From positions 5,024,001 through 5,088,000 of the forward strand of contig OZ242195.1 in assembly GCA_965205975.1 (NCBI GenBank): DNA of 64,000 nt, in the 5' to 3' direction. The translations under genes and the position numbers were made by a program. Shown here piece after piece: positions 9,376 to 38,099 of this stretch. The notes under the pieces were generated by a model that was not told the origin of the DNA, made no database searches, and was given only the letters and a program-made list of their open reading frames with translations. The stretch is from Candidatus Latescibacterota bacterium (GTDB lineage: Bacteria; Latescibacterota; UBA2968). The stretch's first letter is position 1. Every line of letters starts with the position of its first letter.

Positions 9376-9404
9376 TAGACAATTGGTTGGTTTGGTGATA
9401 TAAT
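9376..9404 (+). promoter_or_regulatory. Sigma70-type promoter of czcCBA
   Basis: TAGACA (9376-81), 17 bp spacer, TATAAT (9399-404) with extended -10 TGn; SD AGGAGG ahead of the czcC start. Confidence 0.7.
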
Positions 9405-9446: not shown

Positions 9447-10703
9447 TTGATGCTCAAACTATGTTATCGACACGCCTTCGTATTGTGTGGCCTGATATTG
9501 GTGTCCTGGACGACATTGGTCGCTGAGACAACGGTGCTGGGAGATGCCCGGGCCAGTGTCGCGTTAACGCGTTTTGTGCAAGCTGTTGTCGATTCCAATC
9601 CCCGTGTGCAGGCAGCACGCGCGGGTTTAGAAGCGAGCAGTGCGCTTAGAGATGCCGCGTCGCGTCCCCTCTACAATCCCGAATTGTCGCTGGATGCTGA
9701 GAATGCACAAGCCAGGATACGTACACTATCGTTTAGTCAAACGCTGGATTGGGGTGGCAAACGCAAGGCGCGTACCGCAGTGGCAGAATTAGACCGTCTC
9801 GTTGCCGAGGCGGAGTACTTGGATGCCCGATGGACGGTTGCGGTAGATTTGTTCAATGGTCTCGCGCTATATCAAACAGGCGTTGAACGCAGTCGTCTGG
9901 CCCAAACGCGGCAGCAGTTGATGGAGGAGTATGCGGCGTTGGCGAAGCGCCGGTTTGAGATCGGCGAGTTAGACCAGATGGAACTCGATCAGGCACTCCT
10001 TTCGTTGACAGAGGCGCGTATTCAAAAAGCAATGGCGGCCGCCGATTTGTCCGAGGTGCGGCAAGCGGTGTACAACCTTGTTTCGCGAACACCCGAGGCG
10101 CAGTGGCCTTCTCTTCCCGCAAAACTACCAGAGTTACCTGGGCAAAATGCTGATCCAAAGGTGCTGGTGCAGGCATTACCCGAGGTTGTAGCTGCACAGC
10201 ACCGGGTCAATATGGCTGATGCTGTGGTTGCACTGAGGCGACGCGAACGTCGTCCAGATCCAACCCTGAGCCTCACTGGAGGGTACGAAGATGGCGAAAG
10301 GCTAATCGGTTTGGGTCTGTCCATTCCGCTTCCGATCCGGAACCGCTTTGCACATGAGGTTACCGCGGCTATGGCGGAGCGTGATCAGGCCCAGAAACTT
10401 GCAGATGATACGGTACAAATGGCGCAGGCCTTTCTGGTTGGTGCGGCAGAGCGCTACGAGTTATCGCGCAGTGCCTGGGGCGAGTGGGAGCAGTTGGGGC
10501 GGAAAAGTCTGGACCGACAAAGCGAGGAACTGCGCCGACTCTGGCAGGCTGGGGATCTCAGTACAGCCGACTATTTGGCACAATTGGAGCAAACGATACA
10601 TGTGCGAGAAAGTGCCCTTGATCTGCACAGTCAGGTATGGCGTGCCTGGTTCGAATGGCTTCTCGCAGCGGGACAGGTAGATGCCTGGCTCGGTCTTAGA
10701 TGA
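9447..10703 (+). CDS. czcC: TolC-family outer membrane factor, CzcC-like
   Basis: Signal peptide; NPEL, SQTLDWGGKRKAR, PDPTLSL, GLSIPLP; first gene of an OMF-MFP-HME-RND triad. Confidence 0.8.
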   Translation: MMLKLCYRHAFVLCGLILVSWTTLVAETTVLGDARASVALTRFVQAVVDSNPRVQAARAGLEASSALRDAASRPLYNPELSLDAENAQARIRTLSFSQTLDWGGKRKARTAVAELDRLVAEAEYLDARWTVAVDLFNGLALYQTGVERSRLAQTRQQLMEEYAALAKRRFEIGELDQMELDQALLSLTEARIQKAMAAADLSEVRQAVYNLVSRTPEAQWPSLPAKLPELPGQNADPKVLVQALPEVVAAQHRVNMADAVVALRRRERRPDPTLSLTGGYEDGERLIGLGLSIPLPIRNRFAHEVTAAMAERDQAQKLADDTVQMAQAFLVGAAERYELSRSAWGEWEQLGRKSLDRQSEELRRLWQAGDLSTADYLAQLEQTIHVRESALDLHSQVWRAWFEWLLAAGQVDAWLGLR

Positions 10704-11839
10704 ATTACAACACACAAAAAACCGCATTGGAGGCCCTGATGACGATGCTGAAATTTTGGGCGATGTGTCTGTGTTTGATACTGATCCAGCCGATGTATGC
10801 CGAGGAAGCTGATCATGATGCGGCAATTGAACTGAGCGCAGAAGAACAACGCGCGGCGGGTATTGTTATCGGCATGGTTGAACCTCGCGCGCTCAATGAA
10901 ACCCTGCGGATTCCGGGCGAGGTCGTGATCAACGCGTACCGATCTGTGCTCGTTACGCCGCGCATTACAGCACAGGTTGTGGCGCGTCATGCGAAACTCG
11001 GCGATGAAGTCGAAGTCGGTCACCCTCTGGTGGCGCTCTCGAGTGTTGAGATGGCCGAGGCGCAAGGAGCATTGATTGTCGCGAATCGAGAATGGCAACG
11101 CGTCAAGACCCTTGGTCGGCAGGCCGTATCGGAACAACGCTATACCGAAGCACATGTTGCACAACAACAGGCTCTCGCCAAAGTGCTCGCTTATGGCATG
11201 ACCATGGTTCAGGCAGAGGCACTTATGCAGTCGGGAGATGCCAGCAAAGCGACCGGTACCTTCGACTTGCTCGCTCCACAAGCGGGCACGGTGCTACAGG
11301 ACGATTTTATTGTCGGTGAATTGATTGAACCTGGCCGGATACTCATGAGTATCAGCGACGAATCAGTGATGTGGGTGAAAGCACATATGGTGTTGACCGC
11401 GTCATCCAAAATCGGTATTGGTGCCAATGTGCGGGTTATCCCCGATGGTATCAACTGGTTTCCGGGCAAGGTCATTCAACTTCATCACCACCTCGACGAA
11501 AAGGTCCGAACTCAAGGCTTGCGCATTGAGGTGCCCAACACGGCTCATAGCTTGCATTCGGGTCAGTTTGTCGAAGTAGAGGTTGTCACCGGAACGCGCG
11601 CACCAGTACTCGCTGTGCCGAGTGCGGCATTGATAATGGTCAAAGGCTCACCGAGTGTATTCAAGATCGAGGACGGACACGAGTTCCATGCCGAGGCTAT
11701 TGAGTTCGGTTCCACGGTGGGCGAGTGGACGGTCGTTCGCAGCGGGCTTATTGCAGGTGATGAGATTGCCATAAGCGGCGTTTTTCACCTCAAATCATTG
11801 ATGCTCAAGTCTTCGCTTGGCGCAGGTCATGTACATTAG
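10700..11839 (+). CDS. czcB: RND periplasmic adaptor subunit, CzcB-like
   Basis: MFP lipoyl/hairpin patterns (VTPRITAQV...LGDEVEVG.PL; LLAPQAGTV); C-terminal GHVH; overlaps the czcC stop. Confidence 0.82.
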   Translation: MNYNTQKTALEALMTMLKFWAMCLCLILIQPMYAEEADHDAAIELSAEEQRAAGIVIGMVEPRALNETLRIPGEVVINAYRSVLVTPRITAQVVARHAKLGDEVEVGHPLVALSSVEMAEAQGALIVANREWQRVKTLGRQAVSEQRYTEAHVAQQQALAKVLAYGMTMVQAEALMQSGDASKATGTFDLLAPQAGTVLQDDFIVGELIEPGRILMSISDESVMWVKAHMVLTASSKIGIGANVRVIPDGINWFPGKVIQLHHHLDEKVRTQGLRIEVPNTAHSLHSGQFVEVEVVTGTRAPVLAVPSAALIMVKGSPSVFKIEDGHEFHAEAIEFGSTVGEWTVVRSGLIAGDEIAISGVFHLKSLMLKSSLGAGHVH

Positions 11840-11848
11840 GAGAATTGC

Positions 11849-14800
11849 ATGTTGGAAGCACTGGTAAATACTTCTCTGCGCTATAAATTCCTGGTGTTGA
11901 TCGCCTTTGGAATCGTAGCTTTTTTGGGTTGGCGCGCGGTTGTAACCGTGCCGATCGATGCGTTTCCAGATGTGACGCCTGCCCAGGTCAATATCTATAC
12001 CGAGTCGCCCGGGCTTGCTGCTGAGGATGTGGAGCAACTCCTAACTTTTCCCATTGAGTCCGGTATGGCCGGGTTGCCGAAGGTGAAGGAGATCCGCTCC
12101 GTGAGTCTCTTCGGTTTGTCCTATGTCGCGGTCTATTTTGAAGACGATATGGATATCTACTTCGCGCGCCGTCTCGTGATGGAGAGGTTGCAGGAGGTAG
12201 GGGAGCGCATCCCAGAAGGTTATGGTACGCCAGAGATGGGTCCCAACTCGTCCGGACTCGGCCAGGTTTTCTGGTACACATTGGAACGGGCTGATGAAAA
12301 GCTCAACGCGGCGATTACCGACATGGACTTGCGGACGCTGCACGACTGGAACGTACGTTTGATCTTGCGAACTGCCCCTGGCGTTGATGATGTCATTTCA
12401 TGGGGGGGCCAGGAGCGACAATTTCAGGTTGTAATGGATCCCCTGAACCTCATCAAATACGACCTGACCTTCACCGATGTCATGGAAGTGATCGAGGCCA
12501 ATAACCGCCAGGTTGGCGGTCAATATATTAATCTCGGCTCAGAGCAGTACCTCGTGCGCGGTCTGGGTCTGGTCAGAGACGAGCGCGATATCGGCGATAT
12601 GGTCGTCAAGGTTGAAGGCGGCGCGCCGGTATATTTGCGCGATATTGCTGAAATCCGTCAGGGGGGGGCACTTCGTTTTGGCGCTGTGACACGCGATGGC
12701 AAGGAGGTTGTCCTTGGGATGGTGCTCTCGCGCATCGGTGAGAATGCCGCCAGGGTGGTTGAGGCGACGAAGGAAAAGGTCGCCATTATTGACCAGTCGC
12801 TACCAGATGGTGTCGTCCTGCGACCCGTTTATGAACGCACCGACCTCGTTGAAAAAGCAGTGGGTACGGCTACGAATGCACTGTTTCAAGGCGCGATTCT
12901 GGTGGGTGTTATTCTGTTTTTGTTTCTCGGCGAATGGCGACCAGCAGTGGTTGTGATTGTCTCTATTCCGCTCACGATGCTCATTGCATTTGTGTTCATG
13001 GATGAAGTGGGTCTCTCAGCCAATCTCATGTCACTTGCCGGCCTCGCCATTGGTATTGGCATGATTGTCGATGGTGCAGTGGTCGTCGTGGAGAATTCAT
13101 TTCGCGTCATGGCAGAACGCAGTGCAGAGACAGAGAAGGTCGATCGCACTGCTGCGGTATTGGCTGCTGCCCGCGAAGTCGTGAATCCGATGACCTTTGC
13201 TATCTTGATTATTGTGGTGGTATTTCTGCCTTTGTTTGCGCTCGAGGGACTGGAGGGCAAGCTGTTCAAGCCGATGGCGTTTAATATCACGTTTGCCATG
13301 GGTGGGAGTTTATTGCTCGCGTTGACATTGATTCCCGTGCTCGCGGCTTTGTTATTAAAACCGCAAAGAGAACGCGAAACATGGCTCATACGTGTCATTA
13401 AACCGCGCTATCTATCCTTGCTTTCCTGGTCATTGGAGAATCGAAAAGTGGTGGTTGGCTGTGCCGTGGGTTTGCTCGTTGTGAGCATGGCACTGTTCCC
13501 TTTTCTGGGAAAAGAGTTCATGCCGCAATTGCAGGAAGGGTCAATCATGTGGCGCGTAACTTCGATACCTTCGGCTTCGCTTCAGCATTCAATCGAGATT
13601 TCCAAGGATATCGAGAACGCGTTGTCGAAATTCCCGGAGGTCGAAACTACGGTGGCAATGATTGGTCGGGCAGAGAAAGGCGAGACCGCCGACGCCAATT
13701 ACATGGAGATTTATACTGCACTCAAGCCCGAGAGCGAATGGCCCGGAGACCGCGATATAAAAGAGCTTGCCGAGGCTATGCGCGAGGAGTTGGAAGTGGT
13801 GGTGCCGTCGGCTGTTATCGCTTTTACTCAGCCAATTCAGATGCGCGTAGAGGAACTGATCTCTGGGGTTCGCGCCACGCTTGCCGCCAAGATCTACGGT
13901 GAAGATTTGGCAGTGCTCGATCAGTTGAGCGAGGCGGTCAAAGATGTCATTGCCGAAGTTGAGGGTGTGGCGGATCTTTCGGTTGAGGCCAATGTCGGCA
14001 AGCCGCAGATCCGCATTCAGGTCAAGCGCGAGCAACTCGCGCGTTTTGGGTTGAATGCGGACGATGTGTTGTCCGTTGTGCGCACGGGTATCGGCAATGA
14101 GCCGGTTACGACCATGATTGACGGCGTGCGCCGCTTCGATATTACGGCGCGATTCGATGACCGATCAAAAGCATCGGTGAAGTCGATTGAGCGCATTCCA
14201 CTGAAAACAAGCGATGGCGCAATCGTTCCTCTCGCGACTGTTGCAGATGTCAGCGTTGCGGAAGGTTACTCTTTTGTGCGCCGCGAGCAATTGCAGCGTT
14301 ACGCAGTGATCCAGATGGATGTGCGAGGGCGCGATGTCGATGGCTTTGTGCGCGATGCCAATGCGGCTATCGATGCACAGATTGACTTGCCTCCGGGCTA
14401 TTGGATTGAGTGGGGTGGTGCGTTCGAGAATCAACAGCGGGCGTTGGCGCGTTTGTCGGTGATCGTGCCGTTGACGATTTTTTTTATTTTTGTGTTGCTC
14501 TATACGGCATTTAATTCGGTTAAGTACGCCGCGCTGATTATAGCCAATGTGCCGTTTGCGACAATTGGAGGGATGGTGGTCCTTTTCTTTAGTGGACAAT
14601 ACGTGTCGGTGCCTTCGGCGATTGGATTTATCGCGGTGTTTGGCGTGGCGATGTTGAACGGCATTGTGTTGGTGAGTTTTATCAATGAGTTGCGCGAAAA
14701 AGGACTCGGTGTTGCAGAGGCTGTGCGACGGGGGGCGGAGTTGCGTTTGCGTCCAGTTTTGATGACCGCGAGTACGTCCATTCTCGGATTGGTGCCCTTG

Positions 14801-14938
14801 TTATTGGCGACGGGTGTTGGTGCCGAAACACAGCGTCCACTCGCTTCGGTGGTGGTCGGCGGTTTGATCACTTCGACGTTGTTGACACTCGTGTTGCTGC
14901 CGGTGATCTACGAGTGGATTGAGACGCGACGGCAGTAA
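11849..14938 (+). CDS. czcA: Heavy-metal efflux RND permease, CzcA/CusA family
   Basis: PIDAFPDVT..QV, IRSVSLFGLSYV, SANLMSLAGLAIGIGMIVDGAVVVVEN, EGKLFKPMA, GVAMLNGIVLV, RLRPVLMTA; 1029 aa. Confidence 0.93.
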   Translation: MLEALVNTSLRYKFLVLIAFGIVAFLGWRAVVTVPIDAFPDVTPAQVNIYTESPGLAAEDVEQLLTFPIESGMAGLPKVKEIRSVSLFGLSYVAVYFEDDMDIYFARRLVMERLQEVGERIPEGYGTPEMGPNSSGLGQVFWYTLERADEKLNAAITDMDLRTLHDWNVRLILRTAPGVDDVISWGGQERQFQVVMDPLNLIKYDLTFTDVMEVIEANNRQVGGQYINLGSEQYLVRGLGLVRDERDIGDMVVKVEGGAPVYLRDIAEIRQGGALRFGAVTRDGKEVVLGMVLSRIGENAARVVEATKEKVAIIDQSLPDGVVLRPVYERTDLVEKAVGTATNALFQGAILVGVILFLFLGEWRPAVVVIVSIPLTMLIAFVFMDEVGLSANLMSLAGLAIGIGMIVDGAVVVVENSFRVMAERSAETEKVDRTAAVLAAAREVVNPMTFAILIIVVVFLPLFALEGLEGKLFKPMAFNITFAMGGSLLLALTLIPVLAALLLKPQRERETWLIRVIKPRYLSLLSWSLENRKVVVGCAVGLLVVSMALFPFLGKEFMPQLQEGSIMWRVTSIPSASLQHSIEISKDIENALSKFPEVETTVAMIGRAEKGETADANYMEIYTALKPESEWPGDRDIKELAEAMREELEVVVPSAVIAFTQPIQMRVEELISGVRATLAAKIYGEDLAVLDQLSEAVKDVIAEVEGVADLSVEANVGKPQIRIQVKREQLARFGLNADDVLSVVRTGIGNEPVTTMIDGVRRFDITARFDDRSKASVKSIERIPLKTSDGAIVPLATVADVSVAEGYSFVRREQLQRYAVIQMDVRGRDVDGFVRDANAAIDAQIDLPPGYWIEWGGAFENQQRALARLSVIVPLTIFFIFVLLYTAFNSVKYAALIIANVPFATIGGMVVLFFSGQYVSVPSAIGFIAVFGVAMLNGIVLVSFINELREKGLGVAEAVRRGAELRLRPVLMTASTSILGLVPLLLATGVGAETQRPLASVVVGGLITSTLLTLVLLPVIYEWIETRRQ

Positions 14939-14957
14939 ACGTCCGCATTTTTATTTC

Positions 14958-15014
14958 TTGCGGTGGGGAAGGTATTACCTTATTATCCGAATAATTCGAA
15001 TAATCCGAATTATT
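14958..15014 (+). promoter_or_regulatory. Promoter plus palindromic operator of the permease-SPFH operon
   Basis: TTGCGG (14958-63), 17 bp, TATTAT (14981-86); immediately downstream a perfect 9-7-9 inverted repeat AATAATTCG-aataatc-CGAATTATT (14990-15014). Confidence 0.65.
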
Positions 15015-15021
15015 ATTATAT

Positions 15022-17400
15022 GTGGTCAAAAAACTATGCTTCCCATCAGAGGGGGTGAGGGCTATTGATGCTCCAATTAATACAAGTATTGGCTTAATAC
15101 AAGCAGTGACCAGTTTCTTTGATTTTCTTGTGATGTCGTTCCTGTTGTTAGCGCCTATGCTAATGCTGGGGCTATTTCTTTCTGGTCTGATTCACGTATT
15201 TATCTCGCGTGAGGCCATTTTGCGGTGGTTGCGCGAAGATAGCTTGAAATCCGTGAGTACGAGTGCAGCCGTTGGCGTGCCCGTGCCGCTTTGCAGTTGC
15301 TCGGTTGTGCCAGTAGTTGCCGAGATGCGCAATAAGGGCGCGTCCCGTTCGTCCTGTATGTCTTTCTTGATTACGGCACCGGAGACAGGTGCGGACTCGA
15401 TTCTGGTCACGAATGCGTTCTTTGGATTCATCGCTGCTATTGTCAGGCCCTTCATCAGCTTTATTACCGCGGTCGTTGCCGGTATTTTTTGTATCGGTCT
15501 CATACGAGATGATAGCGACGAGGCCAGGGCGAGAGAGCACGACCATGATCACGACCATGACCACGATCATGACCATGACCACGATCATGATCACGACCAT
15601 GACCACGATCATGACCATGACCACGATCATGATCATGGGCACGAGCCTCTGGTGCCTGGAAGCGACGATTGCTACGTCAGTCCTTCACAGTTGAAGGCGT
15701 TGTTTTATTCCTGGTTGAAGGGACTAACTGAGGCGGTTAGCCAGCACAAATTCGGATCATGGGTGAAACCGGACTTTTATCGCGACATGCTTCCGGCTGA
15801 AGACAAACAAACTTCTGAGGATGATCCGTCCAAATACAAACACGATCTGGATTTTAAGGAGATCGTCAGGCATATTTTCCGCTATGGCTTTGTCGAGATA
15901 GCGGACGATATTCTGTTTGCGCTGCTCGTGGGCGTCGCACTGGGAGGCGTGCTCTATCTGGCGATTCCGAGCGACCTGATGTCCAATGAGTATGCGCGCT
16001 GGTTGTCCTACCCCGTTATGGTGCTGGTTGGTGTTCCTCTTTATATCTGCGCGTCCGCGAGTACCCCGATAGCTGCCGCGCTGGTCGCCAAAGGATTTAG
16101 TCCTGGTGCGGCACTGATTTTTCTCATGACCGGACCGGCGACCAATACGGGTACTATTGCGATTATCGTCAGTCAATTCGGGGCGCGCTTTGCGACTATC
16201 TATGTGTCAGCGGTGATCGCAGTGACCGTTGCTCTGGGCATTGTGATTGATATTGTGCTTCTCGCCATCGGCGTGACGGTTCCCCTGTATCTCGGTCCTT
16301 CGGAGTCAACGACTATTCAGCTCATACAATGGGGCAGTGCTTTTGCCCTGATTGCTCTGATCATCTGGCGGTTCCGCGCAGGTGCTTTTAAGAGCGGCTA
16401 TGAAGATTTGTTGCTCAATATCCGCCCTGTGGCCGAACCCTGTAAAGAGTTCTGGGGGCGCGTGACGCGCAACCGGTCTTTTGTGGGCATTATCACTCCT
16501 TCCACGCCGTTGGGAAAGACGTTTTACGGTCTGCTGATCGCCCTGTTTCTCGGTAGCGGTTTTACTGTGATTCCTCCCGGGCATGTGGGCTACGGTCGTC
16601 TGTTTGGCGCGGTTTACTGGCGAGACCTGCAGCCGGGGTTGCACTATCTCGCGCCCCGTCCCTTTGTGCGGGTGGATAAATGGCCGGTAAAAGAAGTGAA
16701 GTACATTACAAATGCGAATGCGTACGAATTGATTTCGGGCGATTTGAATATCCTCTCTCTTACCATCAATGCGCAGTACCGCGTAAAGGATGCCTATACG
16801 TATCATTACCAGATCCAGAACCCGAAAGAGATCATTAAAGATGCCATTAAGGATCATCTGCGCGAGTTTGTATCTGCCCGCAATCTGGATCATCTGCTCA
16901 GTGTTCACCGCGCAAAGCTGGAGCAGCATATCAGAGAATTGTTTGCGGGCGCTGTCGAGGCGTCGCGCCCGGTGTTCGAGAGCGTTGAACTAATTGATAT
17001 AAATCTGGTGAGTGTTAACCCGGCGGCAGAAACAATGAGTGCTTTTCGGGAAATCTCGAGTTCTCAGGAGGATCGAGAGCGGATCATCATCAATGCCCAG
17101 CGTTTCCTGACGTCGTTAGTTCCCCGTGCACATGGAAATGCGATTTACGAAGTGGAGCAGGCAAACGGCGAAGCGTTCAGAAAAGTGACCACTTCTGCCG
17201 CTGAAGCAGATGCGATAAAAGTCGTGGCTGCGGCAGTGAATCGCGCGCCCAATGTTCTCCAGACCATGCTGTGGCGGGAGAAGCTGGAAACCGCGCTTTC
17301 TGGCAATGCCAAGATTATCGTTCCCAACAAGCGGAGCCTCGAAAAGGTCGCGCTGTGGAAGAGTAAGCCAGCGAAGACAAACGCGAACGCCCAGCACTGA
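15022..17400 (+). CDS. DUF318/ArsP_1 (SO_0444-type Cu/Zn) permease with (HD)n loop, fused to C-terminal HflK-like SPFH domain
   Basis: GVPVPLCSCSVVP, FLITAPETGADS, GVPLYICASASTPIAAAL..KG.SPGAALIFLMTGPATN; H(DH)16GH; then TM + GFTVIPPGHVG..RLFG..LQPGLHY.AP.P, ISGDLNIL, AFREISSSQEDRERII..A...VPRAHGNA (HflK pattern). One uninterrupted 792-aa ORF; exact start uncertain. Confidence 0.88.
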   Translation: MVKKLCFPSEGVRAIDAPINTSIGLIQAVTSFFDFLVMSFLLLAPMLMLGLFLSGLIHVFISREAILRWLREDSLKSVSTSAAVGVPVPLCSCSVVPVVAEMRNKGASRSSCMSFLITAPETGADSILVTNAFFGFIAAIVRPFISFITAVVAGIFCIGLIRDDSDEARAREHDHDHDHDHDHDHDHDHDHDHDHDHDHDHDHDHGHEPLVPGSDDCYVSPSQLKALFYSWLKGLTEAVSQHKFGSWVKPDFYRDMLPAEDKQTSEDDPSKYKHDLDFKEIVRHIFRYGFVEIADDILFALLVGVALGGVLYLAIPSDLMSNEYARWLSYPVMVLVGVPLYICASASTPIAAALVAKGFSPGAALIFLMTGPATNTGTIAIIVSQFGARFATIYVSAVIAVTVALGIVIDIVLLAIGVTVPLYLGPSESTTIQLIQWGSAFALIALIIWRFRAGAFKSGYEDLLLNIRPVAEPCKEFWGRVTRNRSFVGIITPSTPLGKTFYGLLIALFLGSGFTVIPPGHVGYGRLFGAVYWRDLQPGLHYLAPRPFVRVDKWPVKEVKYITNANAYELISGDLNILSLTINAQYRVKDAYTYHYQIQNPKEIIKDAIKDHLREFVSARNLDHLLSVHRAKLEQHIRELFAGAVEASRPVFESVELIDINLVSVNPAAETMSAFREISSSQEDRERIIINAQRFLTSLVPRAHGNAIYEVEQANGEAFRKVTTSAAEADAIKVVAAAVNRAPNVLQTMLWREKLETALSGNAKIIVPNKRSLEKVALWKSKPAKTNANAQH
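15538..15636 (+). repeat. His-Asp codon tandem repeat with exact 42-bp higher-order duplication
   Basis: Encodes H(DH)16; 15544-15585 is identical to 15586-15627. Confidence 0.95.
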
Positions 17401-17415
17401 TAGGGAGAAAAGATT

Positions 17416-18303
17416 ATGACTTTCAAAAGAATTGTCACAGCCATTGTCGTAGTTTTTGTTGGTGTAATTGCGTATAGCTGTTTTTACACCATACATGAGA
17501 CCCAACAAGGCGTGTTGACCAACTTTGGCAAAATCTCGCCGCCCATCAAGGGACCCGGGCTGCATGTCAAATGGCCGTGGCCAATAACGAAGGTGTACAA
17601 GGTTGATCGGCGCATTCAGACCCTCAATGGCCTTACCCATGAGTTGATTACGGAAGACCAGAAGAATGTCCTGGTTGACGGTTATACGATGTGGCGTATC
17701 GATGATCCCATCAAGTATGTCGAAGCCATTCGAACCGATGTAAATGCCGTTGAGCGTTTGCAGGAACTCTATTTTGCGAGTAGCGGTATTGTCATCAGCA
17801 ATAGGGCACGCGATGCGTTTATCAGTCTGGGGCTGGAACACGAAGATCTGCATGAGGCGTGCCGCGAGATGCACAACAGGATCGCGCCAATCGCCAAAGC
17901 CAACTATGGGATTGAGGTGATACGGGTCGGTATTGTCGAATACACCTTGCCGGTGGAGAACCGCCCAAGCGTGATCCAGCGAATGATTTCCGAGCGTGCG
18001 CGCATTGCCACCCGCTATCGCAGCGAGGGTGAGGAGAAGGCGATAACCATCGAGGCTCTTGCCATCAACGAGCACGAAAAAATTATGGCCGACGCCCATG
18101 CAGAAGCAACGACGATTCTCGGCAATGCCGAGGCCCAGGCAATGGCAGTGCTGGGCAAAGCCTATCGGGAAGATCCGGAGTTCTACAAGTTCATCCGCGC
18201 ACTCGACAGCTACGATCTGATTATTGACAAAAACACGACGCTCATGCTGCCCGCAGATAGTGAATTATTCAAATATCTGGACAGCAAATCTATACCCAGG
18301 TAA
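17416..18303 (+). CDS. hflC: HflC-like SPFH/Band 7 protein
   Basis: N-terminal TM; PGLHVKWPWP, VDRRIQ, ITEDQKNVLVD..WRIDDP, RMISERARIA..YRSEGEEKA, AYREDPEFYKFIRALDSY, DSELFKYL. Confidence 0.85.
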   Translation: MTFKRIVTAIVVVFVGVIAYSCFYTIHETQQGVLTNFGKISPPIKGPGLHVKWPWPITKVYKVDRRIQTLNGLTHELITEDQKNVLVDGYTMWRIDDPIKYVEAIRTDVNAVERLQELYFASSGIVISNRARDAFISLGLEHEDLHEACREMHNRIAPIAKANYGIEVIRVGIVEYTLPVENRPSVIQRMISERARIATRYRSEGEEKAITIEALAINEHEKIMADAHAEATTILGNAEAQAMAVLGKAYREDPEFYKFIRALDSYDLIIDKNTTLMLPADSELFKYLDSKSIPR

Positions 18304-18312
18304 GATGGGGCT

Positions 18313-19635
18313 ATGACGATGAACGAACAACAACCATTACCGCGCAGTACGCGCATGATCTACGCCGCGTTTGATTTCGTTGGGCAGTATCCCAAAAGGC
18401 GAATTCTCACAGTGCTCGCCGCGATTGTCGTCGCTGTGGTGTTGGGCAGCGGGTTTTATATTGTAGAGAAAGAGGAAGAGGCTGTGGTTCTGCGTTTCGG
18501 GAAGGTAGTGGTGACGGATATCGGTCCCGGGATACGCTACTGCATCCCCATTATCGATGAAGTTCAGATTCGCAAGGTCAAACGGATCGTCCAGCATCAG
18601 ATAGCCAGTAAGAGCGGCGGCACAGCCAATTTTACAATATTGTCTGGGGACACGAACCTGTTTGAGGTGGATATCGCCCTTCAATACCGGATAGATAATT
18701 TGCGGAATTTTCTATACGCATCTACCGACCCTCTTCAGGTGGTCTCCATGCTCTTGCGGGAAGAGTTGATCAATATCATGGGACAAAATTTTATTGATCT
18801 AATCCTGACTTCCAACCGCAATATTATTCAACACCACCTGTTGCACGAGATTGCCGACCTTCTCGAAGAATATGACGTTGGCATAGAGGTCGTTTCTCTC
18901 AACATCGTTGATATAAGCCCGATTGCAGAAACGATTGCTGCATTCCGGGATGTCAACGATGCGATTGCCGAGCGTGCGCAAGCAGAGAGCAATGCCAACC
19001 GCACGCGGGAGAAGATGATCGCGCACAGCAGGGGACAGGCGGAGGCCGTGGTGATGGACGCCCACGCCAGGGCACGGGAACGCATTGTGCAGGCTCAAAG
19101 CAGTGCCGACGCATTCCGCGCTCTGCTCGTCGAGTACAAAAGTCAACGAACGCAAGTGGCTATCACGCGGTATTGGCAGCGCATGCGCACGATTTTCTCG
19201 GAAGCGAGTCTGTCGGCGGTCAATCCCCGCAATGAGGCGACAATCGATATCAATATGATAGAAGGTCTCGCGGCGCACACACCCGTGGACATGTTGCTGG
19301 ACGCGCCTTCCGGTGATGCTGTCGAGAGGCCCTCTTTTTCAACGGCGCGACAGAGGGATACACATAATTTTGAAAATGTCGAAGAGGACAAACACTTGCT
19401 GGACGGGCAATTCCACAAAAGGCGCGTGGAACGCCATCACCAGAGAGTCGCCAATATGAGATCGCTGATATTCGACATGCCCAGTGTATTTTCTCATGAG
19501 CACACGTCAACCCATCCCCTGACCACCGTGCGACAGGCAGACCAGCAGGCGGTGATTGAGACGAAAGCTGCAGAAAGCGTGCAGGATAGCAGCAAAACCG
19601 TGGATAAGGAGAAAAAAAGTGAGTCTGCTCAATAA
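18313..19635 (+). CDS. hflK: HflK-like SPFH protein with His-containing C-terminal extension
   Basis: TM + SGFYIV..EEAVVLRFGK, GPGI, LSGDTNL..V...QYRI, AAFRDVNDA..ER, A.G.AE; about 120-aa tail containing 9 His. Confidence 0.8.
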   Translation: MTMNEQQPLPRSTRMIYAAFDFVGQYPKRRILTVLAAIVVAVVLGSGFYIVEKEEEAVVLRFGKVVVTDIGPGIRYCIPIIDEVQIRKVKRIVQHQIASKSGGTANFTILSGDTNLFEVDIALQYRIDNLRNFLYASTDPLQVVSMLLREELINIMGQNFIDLILTSNRNIIQHHLLHEIADLLEEYDVGIEVVSLNIVDISPIAETIAAFRDVNDAIAERAQAESNANRTREKMIAHSRGQAEAVVMDAHARARERIVQAQSSADAFRALLVEYKSQRTQVAITRYWQRMRTIFSEASLSAVNPRNEATIDINMIEGLAAHTPVDMLLDAPSGDAVERPSFSTARQRDTHNFENVEEDKHLLDGQFHKRRVERHHQRVANMRSLIFDMPSVFSHEHTSTHPLTTVRQADQQAVIETKAAESVQDSSKTVDKEKKSESAQ

Positions 19636-20860
19636 GCCCATATCGACGGGCATAGCTTCCTGTCTCATCCTGCTGGTGCTCACCCTGCCCTCTGCGGCGG
19701 CTCCGGGAATTACTGATAGTACGATCGTGTTCGGGCAAACCGCCTGTTTCTCGGGACCGAACAAAAATTTGGGTTTGTGGTATCGAGCCGGCATTTTGAC
19801 CGCTTTTCAGGAACAGAACGATCGAGGCGGGGTGTATGGCAGGTTGTTGAGGCTCATTTCTGTAGATGACGCGTACGAGCCTGATCTGGCAGCCGCGAAT
19901 GCAGAGATGTTCGCTTCCCAAAACAATGTGTTCGCCGTCATCGGCGGCGTGGGAACGCCGACTGCCAAGCGCATTGTACCCGTGCTGCGAACGGCTCAGA
20001 TTCCCTTTGTGGGACCGTTTACAGGAGCCGATTTTCTGCGCGATGCTAAAAAGTATCCAAATATCATCAATCTGAGGGCTGGCTACTTTGACGAGATCTA
20101 TGAACTGGTCCATCACATGATTGACGATCTCGGCAAAAGTCGTTTTGGCATTATATATCAGGATGATGCGTTTGGGCGTTCCGTCTTGAGAAACTACAAG
20201 GCGATTCTCGATAGTCGCGAACTTCCCTTACTGGCGAAGACCTCCTACTCGCGGAACACACATGCCGTCCATGCGAGCCTGTTCGCATTGGATAAAGCCG
20301 ATCTGGACGCTATCCTGATAGTGGGAGCCTATGCCGCCAATTCGGAAATTATCAATCTGGCCAATTCTCTGGGACATAAATACATAATAGCCAATCTGTC
20401 CTTTGTTTTATCTCGCGAACTGAAGAAGAGGATCAATACGCTGAGTGATAAAATTCTGGTGACCGAGGTGATGCCCGACGCGCAAGACCTGAGTAGTCAT
20501 GTCGTGCGACAGTTTCAACAAGCTATAAAATCTTTACCGGAAGACCACGCGCACGAATTCAATGAAGTATGTCTGGAGGGGTATATATTGGGTCGATATC
20601 TCATCGCTGTGTTGGAGCGTATGGGCGGTGAGTTGACGGGCGTGCTGCCAACGTCATTGCCACAGGAATACAAAACAGAAGTGTTGGAGCGTATGGGCAA
20701 TGAGTTGACGCGAGATCGGTTCTTAAAAGATGGCATGTCGCCAGCTAAGCCTGTCGTGATTGGCGATTGGGTCATTCATTTCAAATCCGGTGAGAACAGG
20801 GGTTCGAGCTACATCAGGTTGACCCATCTGGGTGGCGGTCATTCTGCAAAGGGAGAATAA
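19619..20860 (+). CDS. Periplasmic binding protein, branched-chain amino acid type (PBP family 6), no cognate ABC genes adjacent
   Basis: Signal peptide; GITDSTIVFGQTACFSGP, NDRGGVYGR...DDAYEPD, VGTPT, IIYQDDAFG. GTG start at 19619 with AAGGAGA SD, overlapping the hflK end. Confidence 0.82.
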   Translation: MSLLNKPISTGIASCLILLVLTLPSAAAPGITDSTIVFGQTACFSGPNKNLGLWYRAGILTAFQEQNDRGGVYGRLLRLISVDDAYEPDLAAANAEMFASQNNVFAVIGGVGTPTAKRIVPVLRTAQIPFVGPFTGADFLRDAKKYPNIINLRAGYFDEIYELVHHMIDDLGKSRFGIIYQDDAFGRSVLRNYKAILDSRELPLLAKTSYSRNTHAVHASLFALDKADLDAILIVGAYAANSEIINLANSLGHKYIIANLSFVLSRELKKRINTLSDKILVTEVMPDAQDLSSHVVRQFQQAIKSLPEDHAHEFNEVCLEGYILGRYLIAVLERMGGELTGVLPTSLPQEYKTEVLERMGNELTRDRFLKDGMSPAKPVVIGDWVIHFKSGENRGSSYIRLTHLGGGHSAKGE

Positions 20861-20863
20861 TCC

Positions 20864-21355
20864 TTGAAGAATATAGACGAATTTTCTGTCGAAGAGATCG
20901 GCGAAGAGTGGTTGCGCGAGCTTTATAAGGTTGTTGCTCTGCGGCGCGGTACCATGTTCAGAATGATTACCGAGACAGCGCGCCTGTTGTTATTTGGCAA
21001 TGCGGGCGGTGCCGCGTTGATTATCGGTTTTATGAGTGCATCCACAGGTAGTGGTGAAGATCCCGCTTATCACTGGGCTTCCTTGCTGACACTGCTCATG
21101 TTTGCGGTGGGAACGCTTGGATCAGCTATGGCAATGATCATGGTCGCCGTGGTCTCGGTAAAAGAAGCTCACGGTGCGGAGAATGCATTGAAACGGTTTG
21201 TCGATGGCGAGATCGACCGAACACAGGTGATGTTTACGGTCGAAGAACAGACTTTTCGCCTGGCCAATTACGCCACGGCGTCCGGTGTGGTCAGTTCTGT
21301 GGGATTTCTACTTGGTGGATTGAGCAGTATTATTCTGTTGGTCCTGTTCTTCTAA
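20864..21355 (+). CDS. Hypothetical 3-TM membrane protein
   Basis: SD AGGGAG; 3 nt after the upstream stop; three hydrophobic segments (LLFGNAGGAALIIGFM; LLTLLMFAVG..; GFLLGGLSSIILLVLFF). Confidence 0.7.
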   Translation: MKNIDEFSVEEIGEEWLRELYKVVALRRGTMFRMITETARLLLFGNAGGAALIIGFMSASTGSGEDPAYHWASLLTLLMFAVGTLGSAMAMIMVAVVSVKEAHGAENALKRFVDGEIDRTQVMFTVEEQTFRLANYATASGVVSSVGFLLGGLSSIILLVLFF

Positions 21356-21480
21356 TAATAGTCTCGATGGTAGGCGTACTGAAAGTGCCTGTATCTGTTT
21401 CTTTTTTCCATCCATTCCAATTCTTCACACCCATCCTAACCCAGATTACCATTATGAGCCAGGTTCCGATTTAAACCACT

Positions 21481-22356
21481 ATGGATTTAAATTTTTTGCT
21501 CCTTTTGTTGGGATACTCCCTCGCTATCCTTGCCGCGTCTTTGTTCGGTGGATATCTGCCGACAATCGTTACGATGACGCATACGCGCATCCAGATGGTG
21601 ATGAGTTTTGTCGCGGGTTTCATACTTGGCGTCGCGCTGTATCATCTCCTGCCGCACGGTCTGGTATTGATTCCCGGGCCGGATGCTGTCGAAAAGGCTG
21701 TGGGATTGATGATGTTTGGCATCATTCTGATGGTATTGTTGTTGCGTATCTTCCATTTTCATCAACACGAATTTGGCGACGAAGCAGGTGATTTTCACCA
21801 CGATCATGACCACGATCATGTCCACGAGCATGAGCATGCCAGTCCCGAGAGCAGGTTGATCGGTGTTTGTCTGGGGTTGGGGTTGCATACGATGACCGAG
21901 GGTATTGCTCTGGGTACCAGCATCCGGGTTGGTGAAATACATGGGGGCGAAGCCGGTTTAGCGGGTCTCGGGGTGTTTCTTGCGATTCTTTTGCATAAGC
22001 CACTCGACGCGTTTTCCATTATCGGTTTGTTGCAGGCCGCTGGTCATAGTCTCCGCACTCGTATAGCAGTCAATATCGGATTCGCCATGCTCTGTCCGGT
22101 AGTGGCTTTGTTGACTTTTTGGGGGATTGGGTTTTTGGGACACTGGGAGGAAGAGGTGGTCGGTTATGTGCTGGTTCTGGCAGCCGGCGCGTTTCTGTGT
22201 ATTTCGCTGAGCGATCTGTTGCCGGAAATCCATTTCCACAGTCACGATCGCGTCAAGCTCACTGTGTGCTTCCTCATGGGGATTGCGCTTGCGTATGGGC
22301 TGTATTTTATTGAGTCCGGAGCGGTGCACGGGTTAGAGATGCACGAAATGCATTGA
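21481..22356 (+). CDS. ZIP family divalent metal transporter
   Basis: SFVAGFILGVALYHLLPH, His-rich loop HFHQHE...HHDHDHDHVHEHEH, TM4 LHTMTEG, TM5 LHKPLD, AGAFLCISLSDLLPE. Confidence 0.92.
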   Translation: MDLNFLLLLLGYSLAILAASLFGGYLPTIVTMTHTRIQMVMSFVAGFILGVALYHLLPHGLVLIPGPDAVEKAVGLMMFGIILMVLLLRIFHFHQHEFGDEAGDFHHDHDHDHVHEHEHASPESRLIGVCLGLGLHTMTEGIALGTSIRVGEIHGGEAGLAGLGVFLAILLHKPLDAFSIIGLLQAAGHSLRTRIAVNIGFAMLCPVVALLTFWGIGFLGHWEEEVVGYVLVLAAGAFLCISLSDLLPEIHFHSHDRVKLTVCFLMGIALAYGLYFIESGAVHGLEMHEMH

Positions 22357-22385
22357 TGCAATAAATTAAGAGACGTTTGTATAAG

Positions 22386-22420
22386 AAAAGGCGGTCTATC
22401 AGGCGATGGATCGCCTTTTT
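22386..22420 (+). terminator. Intrinsic terminator closing the metal island
   Basis: AAAAGGCGGTCTATC-aggc-GATGGATCGCCTTTTT hairpin (with G-U pairs) followed by a T run. Confidence 0.7.
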
Positions 22421-22442
22421 GCCAATCCATAAAGGAGACGTT

Positions 22443-23450
22443 ATGGGATCGATAAAGGCAGCAGTAGTGGGGCTTGGGTTGGGCCAGCATTTTGTTCGTG
22501 GGCTGGCTGGGCATCCGGATGTGGATAGGATTGTCCTGGTAGATCTGGACGCCGATCGAGCCGAAATGGTTCAAAGGGAGCACGACAAGGTGGATGCCGT
22601 CTATGAGATGATTGAGGTTATGCTCGAAAAGGAGCGTCCCGACGCGGTGTGTGTCGTGACCCCCGATCATCTCCATCGGCCACATTCAACGGTTTGCTTC
22701 GAGGCTGGCGCCCATGTGTTGCAGACAAAACCGCTTGCGACGAATCTCGAGGATGCGCGTGCAATTTTGGCGGCGGCGAAGGCGGCGGGAAAGAAAGTGA
22801 TGGTAGCGCACGAGCGCAGGTTCCGGCCACGCGTCAAGCGAATCAAAGCGATTCTCGATGCTGGCGAGGTGGGCGATCTGATCCACCTCCGTATCGATGC
22901 GATCCAGGACAAACGCGGGCAGTTTGCACGTTCGCCGTGGTATGCGTCGGTAGAGGCGGGTCGGAGTGCTTTGAACGGTTCGGGCATTCACGAAGTGGAT
23001 CTTGCGCGACATTACGCAGGCCTACCTGTCGAGTCTGTGTGTGCGTTCGCCAATCGGCTCGGCAATCTGGCGTTCCCGAGAGATAAGACAACCTCCGCCC
23101 TGTTCCAGTTTGCAGGTGGCGTCGTGGGTCAGGTCACGGTGACCTACGAGGCGCGCTGGCCGCGTTCGAATTCTCTCGATGATACGTTCCGAGTGGTTGC
23201 TTCTGAAGGCATGATTGTAGGACCACATGTCTATCGCGAAGGGGCAGAGGACTGGGAAGATCTAAGCGGTTTGGACAACAGTACAGCGTCGGGGATCACG
23301 GGGGCCGTTCATGCGTTTGTCGATTCGGTCGTGAACGATGTACCGATCGCGGTGACCGGTGAAGATGCCTTCGACTCGCTCGCGGCGGCATGCGCGGCCG
23401 ATACATCGGCCGAACGGGGCGAGATGGTGCGCCCAGAAACGCTGGGTTGA
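22443..23450 (+). CDS. Gfo/Idh/MocA family oxidoreductase
   Basis: AVVGLGLG Rossmann motif, DAVCVVTPDHLH, HVLQTKPLA, ERRFRP, GIHEVDL; ATG 22443 with AAGGAG SD. Confidence 0.9.
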   Translation: MGSIKAAVVGLGLGQHFVRGLAGHPDVDRIVLVDLDADRAEMVQREHDKVDAVYEMIEVMLEKERPDAVCVVTPDHLHRPHSTVCFEAGAHVLQTKPLATNLEDARAILAAAKAAGKKVMVAHERRFRPRVKRIKAILDAGEVGDLIHLRIDAIQDKRGQFARSPWYASVEAGRSALNGSGIHEVDLARHYAGLPVESVCAFANRLGNLAFPRDKTTSALFQFAGGVVGQVTVTYEARWPRSNSLDDTFRVVASEGMIVGPHVYREGAEDWEDLSGLDNSTASGITGAVHAFVDSVVNDVPIAVTGEDAFDSLAAACAADTSAERGEMVRPETLG

Positions 23451-25837: not shown

Positions 25838-27820
25838 ATGCGGAAACGGCGATTCTACACCTGTGTAGCACAGGCTTTGATCTTTGCAAGCCTATCCATT
25901 GTTCTTTTGATTCAACCCCTTCAGAGCGCGTTACAATCAGGCTTCAATCCGGATTTTGATGGAAGCGGTGTTGTCGATTTTCCCGACTTTTTGCAATTTG
26001 CAGATAAGTTCGGGTTCAGTCGTGGCGATTCGGGGTACGAATCCAGGTACGATCTGAATGGCGATGGCGAGATTGCTTTTGACGATTTTTTGTTATTTGT
26101 CGGGGCATTTGGTAAAACAGTGTCTATGGAAAGTGAAGATGTTTTGCGTCCAACAGGGGAATTAAAACCCTGGCCTCTTTCATCCATTGTTTCGACTGGC
26201 GAGGTTCGTAATATGCCCATCGGTACGCCTGTATTTATGCGGACCGAATTTGCCAATGGACAGCTTGCAGATCTCGAAATGACGTTCATTCAGGTGGTTG
26301 ACGATTTTTTGCCGCCAATGCCCGTTTATATGGTTGAAGCTTCCGATCCCGTTTTGATACAGCTCGGGGGAATCGCTAAGGGTATGAGTGGTTCTCCCAT
26401 TTTCAATGAGCAAGGCACCTGGGGTGCTATTGCTTATGGTTTTAATTCACAGGATAGCCCGCCGTATTATTTTTTTGCGACACCGATAGAATGGGTGATT
26501 GGCGATAAGGGCGCGATTCCATTGACTAAGCGCACAGCTACCTGGCGAGGTAGTGGTATCTCTCCCCTGGTTATCCCCTTGCTGGGCACGGGACTTAATC
26601 GCATGCCCCAGCCAGATGATTCTTCCCGCCTGAGTGAGGTGATGTCAACTGGAAAAACACAGCAACATCAGATCAGTTTTGAGGCGGGTAGGCCACTGAC
26701 AGTTGGTTTGATGCTGGGCGAGGTTACGGCCGCTGGGCTGGGAACCATATCTTATGTCGATGGCAATCGAATATATGGTTTTGGGCATCCGATGTTCGGT
26801 GTGGGTGCGGTAGAACTGCCTATCATAGAAGCCGTGGTGCTCGGTCCAATATCCAATCTCTCTGCACCGTTTAAGTTTGCAACGCTGAATCCAACTGTGC
26901 GGGGGACGCTGACTGAGGACCGTTTGCCCGCGGTTCGCGGTGTGCTTGGCGAGGAGCCAGAATTGATACCTATCAAGAGTATATATACGTTTTCTTCAGG
27001 GCATGTGCTTGAGCTTACGCACAGGGTGGCGGTTGGTCTTGAACCCTTCGAGACCGCCGATCTCGTTGCGCAGGCTTTGTTCTCGCCTTTGGTTAATCGG
27101 GTTGAAGACGAGCCGAATCACAGTGTGCGTGTCAGGACGGATATTTCTTTTGTGGAGACAGATTCAATACTGGTTCGCTCTCGGCTCTATGTAGAGCCAG
27201 AAGGACGGCTTTGGTATTTGGCTGACAATGCCTCTGCTGACCTGAGAAGGATACTCTCGCAACTCATGACAAGGAATGATTACGCCGTGCAGATGCGCGA
27301 AGCAGAGATTCATGTTGATATATTCCCCGAATCTCGTTTTGCAAAGATAGTAGGCGTTGCTGCGGATACGGTTGCCAGTGCCGGGAGTACGTTGTCTGTT
27401 GCGACTTCGCTGCGCGTGGGACGTCGTGAGGACCGGAATATCGAGATGGCATTTAGCCTGCCCGATACGCTTCCCGCGGGTGTTTATGAACTCGAAGTGG
27501 GTTCTGTAGCGACATTAGGGCCAGATGCCGCTGGAGAAGGTGGCGGTCCTTTTGGGTTTTTTGATCCTTTTGGGCGTGATGAAACGCTTGAAGATTTTTT
27601 TGTTCGCGTGAATGGAATAGATGAAAATGTTATTTTAAAGGCGCGTTTGACATTTGTTATGCCATTTGAGGAAAGTGCATCGCCTGACAGTTTGCCAGAC
27701 CCCCCGCCGCGTGGTCCTCGTGGTATTGAGAACACGACTGCACCTGTTTCTATGGAGAAAGGTGTCGATTTATTTTTAGAAGGTTTTGAAACGCTTCAGA
27801 TACACGTGATGGGGAATTAA
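25838..27820 (+). CDS. Secreted SpoIVB-like peptidase S55 with N-terminal dockerin/EF-hand module
   Basis: Signal peptide; DFDGSGVVDFPDFLQF...YDLNGDGEIAFDDFLLF; GGIAKGMSGSP; GTISYVDG..IYGFGHP. Confidence 0.75.
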   Translation: MRKRRFYTCVAQALIFASLSIVLLIQPLQSALQSGFNPDFDGSGVVDFPDFLQFADKFGFSRGDSGYESRYDLNGDGEIAFDDFLLFVGAFGKTVSMESEDVLRPTGELKPWPLSSIVSTGEVRNMPIGTPVFMRTEFANGQLADLEMTFIQVVDDFLPPMPVYMVEASDPVLIQLGGIAKGMSGSPIFNEQGTWGAIAYGFNSQDSPPYYFFATPIEWVIGDKGAIPLTKRTATWRGSGISPLVIPLLGTGLNRMPQPDDSSRLSEVMSTGKTQQHQISFEAGRPLTVGLMLGEVTAAGLGTISYVDGNRIYGFGHPMFGVGAVELPIIEAVVLGPISNLSAPFKFATLNPTVRGTLTEDRLPAVRGVLGEEPELIPIKSIYTFSSGHVLELTHRVAVGLEPFETADLVAQALFSPLVNRVEDEPNHSVRVRTDISFVETDSILVRSRLYVEPEGRLWYLADNASADLRRILSQLMTRNDYAVQMREAEIHVDIFPESRFAKIVGVAADTVASAGSTLSVATSLRVGRREDRNIEMAFSLPDTLPAGVYELEVGSVATLGPDAAGEGGGPFGFFDPFGRDETLEDFFVRVNGIDENVILKARLTFVMPFEESASPDSLPDPPPRGPRGIENTTAPVSMEKGVDLFLEGFETLQIHVMGN

Positions 27821-37998: not shown

Positions 37999-38015
37999 AT
38001 AGACGCACGGATACA

Positions 38016-38070
38016 GGTGCAGCCTACAACGCAGCGGTAGGTGTGCAACTGGCCGCCAGGCCAGTTCACC
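38016..38070. repeat. GTAG-type REP-like palindrome
   Basis: GTAG (38037) followed by AACTGGCC-gcca-GGCCAGTT hairpin closed by GGTG/CACC; oppositely oriented ...CCTAC half at 38016-27. Confidence 0.5.
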
Positions 38071-38099
38071 GAGTAATAGATGATATTAAGGGAAAGGTT

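Follow-up and report, generated by a model that had tools for sequence, protein, structure and literature searches.

The role of bacterial SPFH cages beyond FtsH is an open question, and a survey in P. aeruginosa found slight phenotypes for extra SPFH genes (PMC13086221). The closest described systems include the HflK/HflC-FtsH cage of E. coli (PMC12048511, PMC13220708), the SO_0444 Cu/Zn transporter (NF033936; PF03773; PMC3219624) and SaoE, and stomatin, a eukaryotic SPFH assembly that encloses the transport proteins AQP1 and UT-B (PMC12407830). The nearest known arrangement is an uncharacterised HmtA operon of P. aeruginosa, in which PA2437-39, annotated HflC/HflC/HflK, lie beside the importer HmtA and are 9-14-fold up in a znuA mutant (PMC4542158, Table 2); the PA2437-39 proteins also rise in zinc depletion, with only some of the changes significant (PMC11761036). 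Here we describe a gene cassette in a stretch of 64,000 nucleotides (the window) from a Candidatus Latescibacterota bacterium (GenBank assembly GCA_965205975.1, contig OZ242195.1, positions 5,024,001 to 5,088,000), in which a whole permease is fused to an HflK-type protein. From sequences and structure models we propose, with a probability of about 55%, that the cassette encodes an accessory, dedicated SPFH cage equipped with a metal transporter; its role would be in zinc homeostasis, more likely on the uptake side.

The cassette begins with the fusion gene, here called K1, which is followed by an hflC and by a second hflK, K2. Coordinates are positions within the window, and all cassette genes lie on the + strand. 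The three genes and their parts are:

15022..17400, +, fusion gene K1: SO_0444/ArsP_1 permease, linker, HflK-type transmembrane (TM) helix, SPFH domain and coiled coil (Pfam, NCBIfam, homologues)
15109..16422, +, permease domain, two repeats each with a helical hairpin, predicted to be elevator-type (AlphaFold2, structural search)
15292..15300, +, CSC motif in hairpin 1 (C62 and C64, numbered from 15109), invariant in 150/150 aligned rows
15538..15642, +, H(DH)16GH loop between the repeats, predicted to be cytoplasmic, of varying length (sequence, topology count)
16048..16050, +, Cys of the YICAS motif in hairpin 2 (C314), invariant in 150/150 rows
16567..17400, +, HflK-type SPFH domain and coiled coil of the fusion, predicted to be periplasmic (Pfam, NCBIfam, topology, tree)
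17416..18303, +, dedicated HflC paralog with lineage-specific His142, His220 and His228 (NCBIfam, alignment)
18313..19635, +, K2, the second, unfused HflK paralog, with a long C-terminal tail (NCBIfam, tree)
19363..19503, +, conserved His/Asp/Glu segment of the K2 tail (alignment)

As in the E. coli cage, the subunits consist of SPFH and coiled-coil domains with one anchoring helix each and are predicted to face the periplasm, and the hflC product passes the HflC cut-off (179.8 against TIGR01932; cut-off 134.4). In contrast to E. coli, there are three subunit types, one K carries a transporter, and both Ks lie outside the housekeeping branch and below the cut-off of 159.4 of the HflK model TIGR01933 (128 bits for K1; 149 for K2); moreover, the HflC has extra His residues, the K2 tail is rich in His and acidic residues, and the genome has an ordinary second hflKC. 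Like SO_0444 and SaoE, K1 passes the NF033936 cut-off (324.9 bits in NCBIfam; cut-off 300) and keeps the CSC motif, the most conserved motif of the SO_0444/ArsP family (10.1101/2022.07.06.499078), and the Cys of the second hairpin; it differs from them by the C-terminal SPFH fusion, a longer His loop and a frequent zinc-uptake context.

The fusion is a real, old and widespread architecture. The first-pass annotation, which was made from the sequence alone, had described one open reading frame (ORF) that joins a DUF318/SO_0444-type permease to an HflK-like SPFH and coiled-coil domain, and this is borne out by Pfam, NCBIfam and homologues; the CSC, YICAS and H(DH)16GH motifs that it named can all be read directly from the sequence. 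The ORF has 792 aa counted from the first GTG, with an uncertain start codon (15022 to ~15106), and Pfam places ArsP_1/PF03773 at residues 31-410 (151.8; cut-off 32.3) and Band_7 at residues 516-693. Both permease halves and the SPFH part were found in a single chain in 120/120 homologues listed (from a search total of 593 proteins), and a profile search of distant representatives (50%-identity clusters) found the same one-chain fusion in 116 of the best 150. The junction is also spanned by contigs from two other public runs: one covers 14861-22600, deviating at 61 letters plus 18 gap letters, and the second, ~93% alike, covers 15627-20330. Together, the contigs from other runs and the recurrence in homologues rule out an assembly artefact or a one-off read-through. 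Contigs from RNA runs cover the cassette in relatives as well; such contigs cannot show transcription, strand or level. We found no description of a transporter-SPFH fusion in the passages of freely available full text that we searched (including PMC2636767).

Two tests, the HflK cut-off and the grouping in a tree, indicate from sequence that the cage is not a member of the housekeeping FtsH-modulator family. The possibility that the window genes are the genome's only hflKC is ruled out by a separate housekeeping hflK-hflC pair (C1:3718038-3719808), which is 28-32% identical to the window paralogs. In a tree of K domains (IQ-TREE, 79 rows, unrooted, with long deep branches), 14 housekeeping HflKs from several phyla formed one side of a branch (support 100/97) with no transporter-linked K inside, and K1 and K2 of the window fell outside it. 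Separate branches were formed by near-clade K1 (100/99), by near-clade K2 (100/100) and by K1 proteins fused to a CDF transporter (100/100; see below), while a group of distant SO_0444-type K2 proteins joined the K2 of the Aquibium CDF cassette (99/91). Because the tree is unrooted and its deep branches are long, we claim separation and no order of events. Thus, the three-paralog SPFH set with a fused permease proposed at first reading stands as distinct from housekeeping hflKC. The window itself has neither ftsH nor hflX, as had been noticed: the one FtsH over the family cut-off is encoded at C1:5482828, and the two hflX-type genes over theirs lie at C1:2956816 and C1:4894411.

FtsH contacts the E. 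coli cage via HflK only, and R141, E142 and R185 of HflK matter for this binding (PMC13220708). These residues bear on an explanation by FtsH-linked turnover, in which the cage would recruit FtsH and the tether would deliver or shield the permease (or the ZIP transporter downstream), so that transporter level tracks metal supply. Window K1 has Lys at the columns of both R141 and R185, a single FtsH passes the family cut-off in this genome, and no adjacent housekeeping K-C pair was seen in 3/5 other hosts checked, all of which favour such turnover. In contrast, window K2 is basic at neither column, near-clade K2 proteins are basic at 141 or 185 in 0/6 cases and near-clade K1 proteins at 185 in 1/6, the transporter-linked Ks fall outside the housekeeping branch, and no ftsH was noticed among the listed recurrent neighbour clusters (25 of the 84 listed representatives were Pfam-scanned). 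The 14 housekeeping controls are themselves too variable at these columns to decide (basic at 141 in 8/14, Glu at 142 in 1/14, basic at 185 in 10/14). We therefore consider FtsH-linked turnover possible, although unlikely. For the 'Arg191' given in PMC12048511, the E. coli sequence compared has Ala, and this residue was therefore set aside.

The AlphaFold2 model of the permease (150-row alignment; pLDDT 84.4, pTM 0.81) has two repeats; in each, a TM helix and a helical hairpin are combined with a broken helix and one more TM helix. A wide structural search (VIA matches) with this model yielded 13 chains (Z 8.1-12.2, root-mean-square deviation 4.3-6.3, 228-275 residues aligned; next Z 4.9), namely Pho90, ArsB, INDY, TRAP M subunits, YdaH, CNT and their kin (ArsB/DASS/AbgT/TRAP-M/CNT-type), all of which are elevator-type transporters. 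We predict from the model that SO_0444/ArsP permeases belong among the elevator transporters (IT/DASS/AbgT/CNT fold), an assignment for which our literature search found no precedent. The invariant C62, C64 and C314 and the nearly invariant E92 sit on the hairpin and broken-helix segments of the model, where they would suit a soft-metal site.

The orientation of the permease determines which side of the membrane its His loop faces. In 32 rows, loops between the model helices on one side of the membrane have 1.1-9.0 Lys and Arg each (sum 23.2), and those on the opposite side 0-1.3 (sum 4.5). By the positive-inside rule, the basic side is cytoplasmic; it takes in the His loop as well as the linker that precedes the final TM helix, and the SPFH domain falls on the periplasmic side. 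The earlier suggestion of a periplasmic compartment that buffers metal is therefore not supported as far as the H(DH)16 loop is concerned, since a loop predicted to be cytoplasmic could not line the cage. The loop is also variable in composition, with 0-39 His (median 13) in 72 fusions.

Other conserved His residues are predicted to lie on the periplasmic side. H142, H220 and H228 of HflC are present in 24/24 near rows and in 0/13 distant or housekeeping rows. H220 and H228 align to positions 257 and 265 of E. coli HflC, which adjoin the 'hat' positions 233 and 264 (PMC13220708). In the K2 tail, H351, H368, E373, D388 and H395 are present in 25/25 near-clade rows and absent from distant and housekeeping HflK. 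Judged from this conservation, the His residues of HflC and of the K2 tail may, in this lineage only, bind metal at the dome.

The genes that flank the K1-hflC-K2 set are:

9447..14938, +, czcCBA-like heavy-metal RND genes (czcC-, czcB- and czcA-like; Pfam, NCBIfam), an optional neighbour outside the core
19556..20860, +, class I (LivJ-like) periplasmic binding protein, Peripla_BP_6 (Pfam), start likely ~19619, with no ABC partner genes adjoining
20864..21355, +, 3TM, a 163-aa protein with three hydrophobic segments and no known family, co-inherited with the fusion
21481..22356, +, ZIP-family transporter (Pfam), a frequent neighbour that is kept when the cage module is lost

It had gone unnoticed at first reading that, in this lineage, the cage module includes the binding protein and 3TM. 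The former resembles LivJ (best PDB match 4kv7, among PDB matches dominated by LivJ/AmiC-type class I proteins) and is not ZnuA- or DctP-like. Two LivJ-like paralogs in the genome, both without ABC partners, precede a TorS-type sensor kinase (L192:2389-8094, with STAS, SpoIIE and anti-sigma genes alongside) and a Cache-domain protein (L193:3032-5109), which suggests that sensing is likelier than substrate delivery. The binding-protein gene also contains an in-frame insertion of 72 bp (24 aa) between the copies of an 18-bp direct repeat (20608-20699); a related contig does not have the insertion. For 3TM, we found no Pfam or NCBIfam match and no PDB sequence match at E<=10; its homology extends to unnamed Atlas clusters only, plus a weak PycTM lead at 0.80.

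We considered that the elevator permease, 3TM and the orphan binding protein might be the M, Q and P components of a TRAP-like importer that brings in a metal-ligand complex within the cage. Consistent with this, the permease model matches TRAP M subunits (IseQM Z 10.3; SiaQM 9.4-9.5), the binding protein and 3TM stand behind every intact near-clade cassette, and in the window's phylum 3TM is present in 25/25 genomes with the full fusion, while the fusion is present in 25/26 genomes with a full 3TM (the exception is a 430-contig assembly). Since related genomes are not independent, we read these counts as co-inheritance and not as a statistical test. On the other side, the binding protein is class I and neither ZnuA nor a DctP (class II) protein, its paralogs point to sensing, 3TM shows no likeness to the one DctQ sequence of the genome that was compared (probability 0.1), and loss of the cage takes both genes with it but spares the permease (36 genomes with a stand-alone or truncated form). 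Moreover, distant cassettes have neither protein. A TRAP-like importer thus seems very improbable.

The cassette is spread widely but patchily. The 80 best GTDB loci, all titled metagenome-assembled genomes, come from Latescibacterota, Gemmatimonadota, Acidobacteriota, Opitutales, Alpha- and Gammaproteobacteria, Spirochaetia, Dadabacteria and Nitrospinota, at 59-95% identity, the closest named relatives being Latescibacterota (91-95%). Within the window's phylum, 25/168 genomes had the full fusion (24 in the table and, in addition, G073 with its intact ORF at locus L012), as had 3/201 sampled genomes of the class Terriglobia; no full-length SO_0444 fusion was found on plasmids. The high identity across phyla together with the patchy presence suggests horizontal spread. 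The fusion was intact in 71/80 GTDB loci, and the order fusion-hflC-hflK2-binding protein-3TM was complete in 67 of these 71, with the other four ending at a contig edge. Among nine distant metagenome fusion loci, fusion-C-K was complete in five, two were cut inside the last gene and one inside the fusion, and none had a match to the binding protein or 3TM. Thus, K1-C-K2 is the old core, to which the binding protein and 3TM are additions of this lineage.

Some loci of these groups have further genes. In one distant subfamily, the gene immediately upstream of the fusion is of the acetamidase/formamidase family (L093, L094, L119 and L160), and one gene farther upstream, L094, L095, L152 and L160 have an additional hflC-like gene (e.g. 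L094:2449-4630; L160:670-2725). Several genomes of one genus have two unfused permease copies ~6 kb apart on opposite strands (L191:3721-10765 in G134; also G128, G133, G135, G136 and G140).

The cage module has repeatedly been deleted as a block, with the permease and ZIP retained. The same permease without its SPFH part, either stand-alone or truncated, occurs in 36 genomes of the phylum, and ZIP is the next gene behind the permease in eight GTDB loci. Deletion scars include chimeric ORFs in which the SPFH start is joined to part of the binding protein (L186, L187), 3TM remnants (G107, G008) and truncated SPFH domains (L020, L037); locus L061 has a 288-aa ORF, probably a chimera, that resembles both K1 and HflC. 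In a FastTree phylogeny of the permease, 16 unfused rows were nested among 72 fused rows with fused outgroups, which amounts to 7 changes, at least 4 of them forced by well-supported branches. Because these block losses leave the permease behind, it probably works without the cage.

The first-pass annotation had envisaged that metal is handed between ZIP, permease and CzcCBA, and recurrent neighbours allow part of this to be assessed. Zinc genes recur: ZIP is near 51/81 loci, znuA near 18, znuB near 17 and a TonB receptor near 13, and znuA and znuB lie directly behind two distant fusions. ZIP is thus a frequent partner, but an optional one, retained along with the permease upon loss of the cage genes. 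CzcCBA, in contrast, is not a fixed hand-off partner, since czcC-like genes are near just 27/81 loci, on varying side and strand, and many loci have znuABC or a TonB receptor instead.

These neighbours also bear on export by the same cage, in which Zn or Cu would be exported into the caged periplasm and buffered by the dome His before CzcCBA removes it. This finds some support in SO_0444, mutants of which are sensitive to Zn and Cu (PMC3219624), in czcCBA preceding the cassette behind a sigma70-like site (11/12; 9376-9404), in the parallel fusions described below, whose CDF domain belongs to an exporter family too, and in the conserved periplasmic His of HflC and the K2 tail. Nevertheless, czcC-like genes are an inconstant neighbour, whereas znuABC and TonB receptors are common ones, the long His loop falls on the cytoplasmic side, and the dome His are missing from distant cassettes. 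We regard export into the cage as quite unlikely, somewhat more so than turnover by FtsH. The sigma70-like site comes from a promoter and terminator scan of the window that was overall not above chance (15 vs 12.3 expected).

With respect to regulation, a Zur-like 17-bp palindrome occurs upstream of the fusion in 7/80 loci, compared to 0-3 in 30 local shuffles, and the same pattern is found near znuA in L079, L083 and L084; of this pattern, PMC4542158 confirms only the 17-bp palindromic form. Near-perfect 23-bp palindromes at ~14982-15013 were considered as a regulator site and rejected, as they are an apparent local duplication absent from close relatives.

We also noted features of other genes in the window. 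TM4 of the CzcA-like protein (11849-14938) carries IGIGMIVDGAVVVVEN, which lacks the first Asp of the classic CzcA motif, so that its substrate may differ from Zn/Co/Cd. An 826-aa ORF (37995-40475), upstream of RND genes, combines an ABC-type substrate-binding domain with outer-membrane efflux (OEP) domains. A 660-aa protein (25838-27820) has a weak match to SpoIVB peptidase S55, and its relatives are near the cassette in 10/81 loci.

The same layout, also missed by the earlier reading, recurs with CDF transporters and beside P-type ATPases. On the Aquibium oceanicum plasmid NZ_CP018172.1 (L171:4367-8012), a CDF domain is fused to HflK; behind this gene come hflC, hflK and genes for a PPIase and for a heavy-metal P-type ATPase, and PF01545 and PF01145 are combined in 120/120 listed homologues of this CDF-HflK. 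Like the window cassette, these cassettes have a metal transporter on K1, then hflC and a second hflK; unlike it, they have the unrelated Cation_efflux fold and their own K1 branch. Literature searches found no characterisation of them; the gene in Aquibium, a cultured organism, is annotated simply 'HflK', and there are at least 120 homologous clusters. Two further plasmids (L172, L173) have a K with 5-6 N-terminal TM segments, then C, K and a P-type ATPase. It is with these two loci that HmtA-type operons were compared: they share with the window the order K(N-terminal membrane domain)-C-K, but have a separate P-type ATPase and a K1 N-terminal domain without a Pfam match, whereas in the window a whole secondary transporter is fused, and no heavy-metal P-type ATPase was found among the scanned ORFs at 9447-23450. 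The K domains of these plasmids formed long, separate branches in the tree. In P. aeruginosa, the PA2434-PA2439 operon, which zinc depletion induces, likewise combines three SPFH paralogs with a metal transporter.

We favor a model in which the cassette forms a dedicated cage. K1, HflC and K2 would co-assemble like E. coli HflK/C with the dome in the periplasm, HflC alternating with two kinds of K, one with the transporter on its N-terminus and one without; K2 would occupy the remaining K positions, since not all of these could bear a bulky transporter. An elevator stroke of the permease would carry a soft metal, Zn or perhaps Cu, while the His loop would receive or sense metal in the cytoplasm. 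The cage would be an accessory that holds, stabilizes or tunes the transporter and is dispensable for basic transport. Peculiar to this lineage would be metal binding at the dome, perhaps by the His of HflC and of the K2 tail, and a regulatory pair added in the form of the binding protein and 3TM. By analogy, the mode of action might be that of an HflK/C cage with a tethered client, as stomatin with AQP1 and UT-B (PMC12407830), although stomatin is eukaryotic, has one subunit type and holds its clients non-covalently. As for direction, we lean, at about 60:40, to a role under zinc scarcity over one under excess, and to uptake, for which the ZIP, znuA, znuB and TonB receptor neighbours and the Zur-like palindromes speak.

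Several observations weigh against this model. Of the permease family, only SO_0444 has been characterised; it is required when Zn or Cu is in excess and was annotated as efflux (PMC3219624), a label derived from mutant fitness, and the window cassette lies directly behind czcCBA. The Zur-like pattern has no match in the window, and 6/7 of the loci that do match are from one alphaproteobacterial subclade and are thus not independent. With Lys at the R141 and R185 columns, K1 could bind FtsH. For the permease fold, Z scores of 8-12 are middling for a helical model, and Foldseek with the same model gave no match at E<=0.001. The AlphaFold2 model of the whole fusion, from a shallow 32-row alignment, has low confidence (pLDDT 46.7), so that the permease might lie either inside or outside the ring. 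One distant locus, L093, has no hflC within 2 kb behind the fusion. Finally, deletion of a three-SPFH operon in P. aeruginosa PA14 had slight phenotypes, and the section headings of that paper list no metal assay (PMC13086221); PA2434-PA2439 is probably the PaFlo5-7 operon described there.

The dedicated cage may be one instance of something broader. We speculate that there is a class of bacterial SPFH cages for metal transport and not proteolysis, in which a K1-C-K2 dome tethered to interchangeable transporters (an elevator-type SO_0444 permease, a CDF or a partner P-type ATPase) would form an enclosed periplasmic antechamber. In this lineage, a His-lined dome would capture zinc for the caged transporter, and the binding protein and 3TM would open, close or gate it on a small-molecule signal. 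We offer this as a long shot.

The cassette appears to be a natural and apparently undescribed case of a cage whose tethered partner is a transporter and not a protease. Because the fusion both names the client and fixes it to the cage, the effect of a cage on a transporter can be asked directly, and the zinc-induced PA2437-39 genes gain a testable role. Since this layout is combined with either of two unrelated transporter folds and also occurs next to P-type ATPases, it may reflect a general principle in metal homeostasis.

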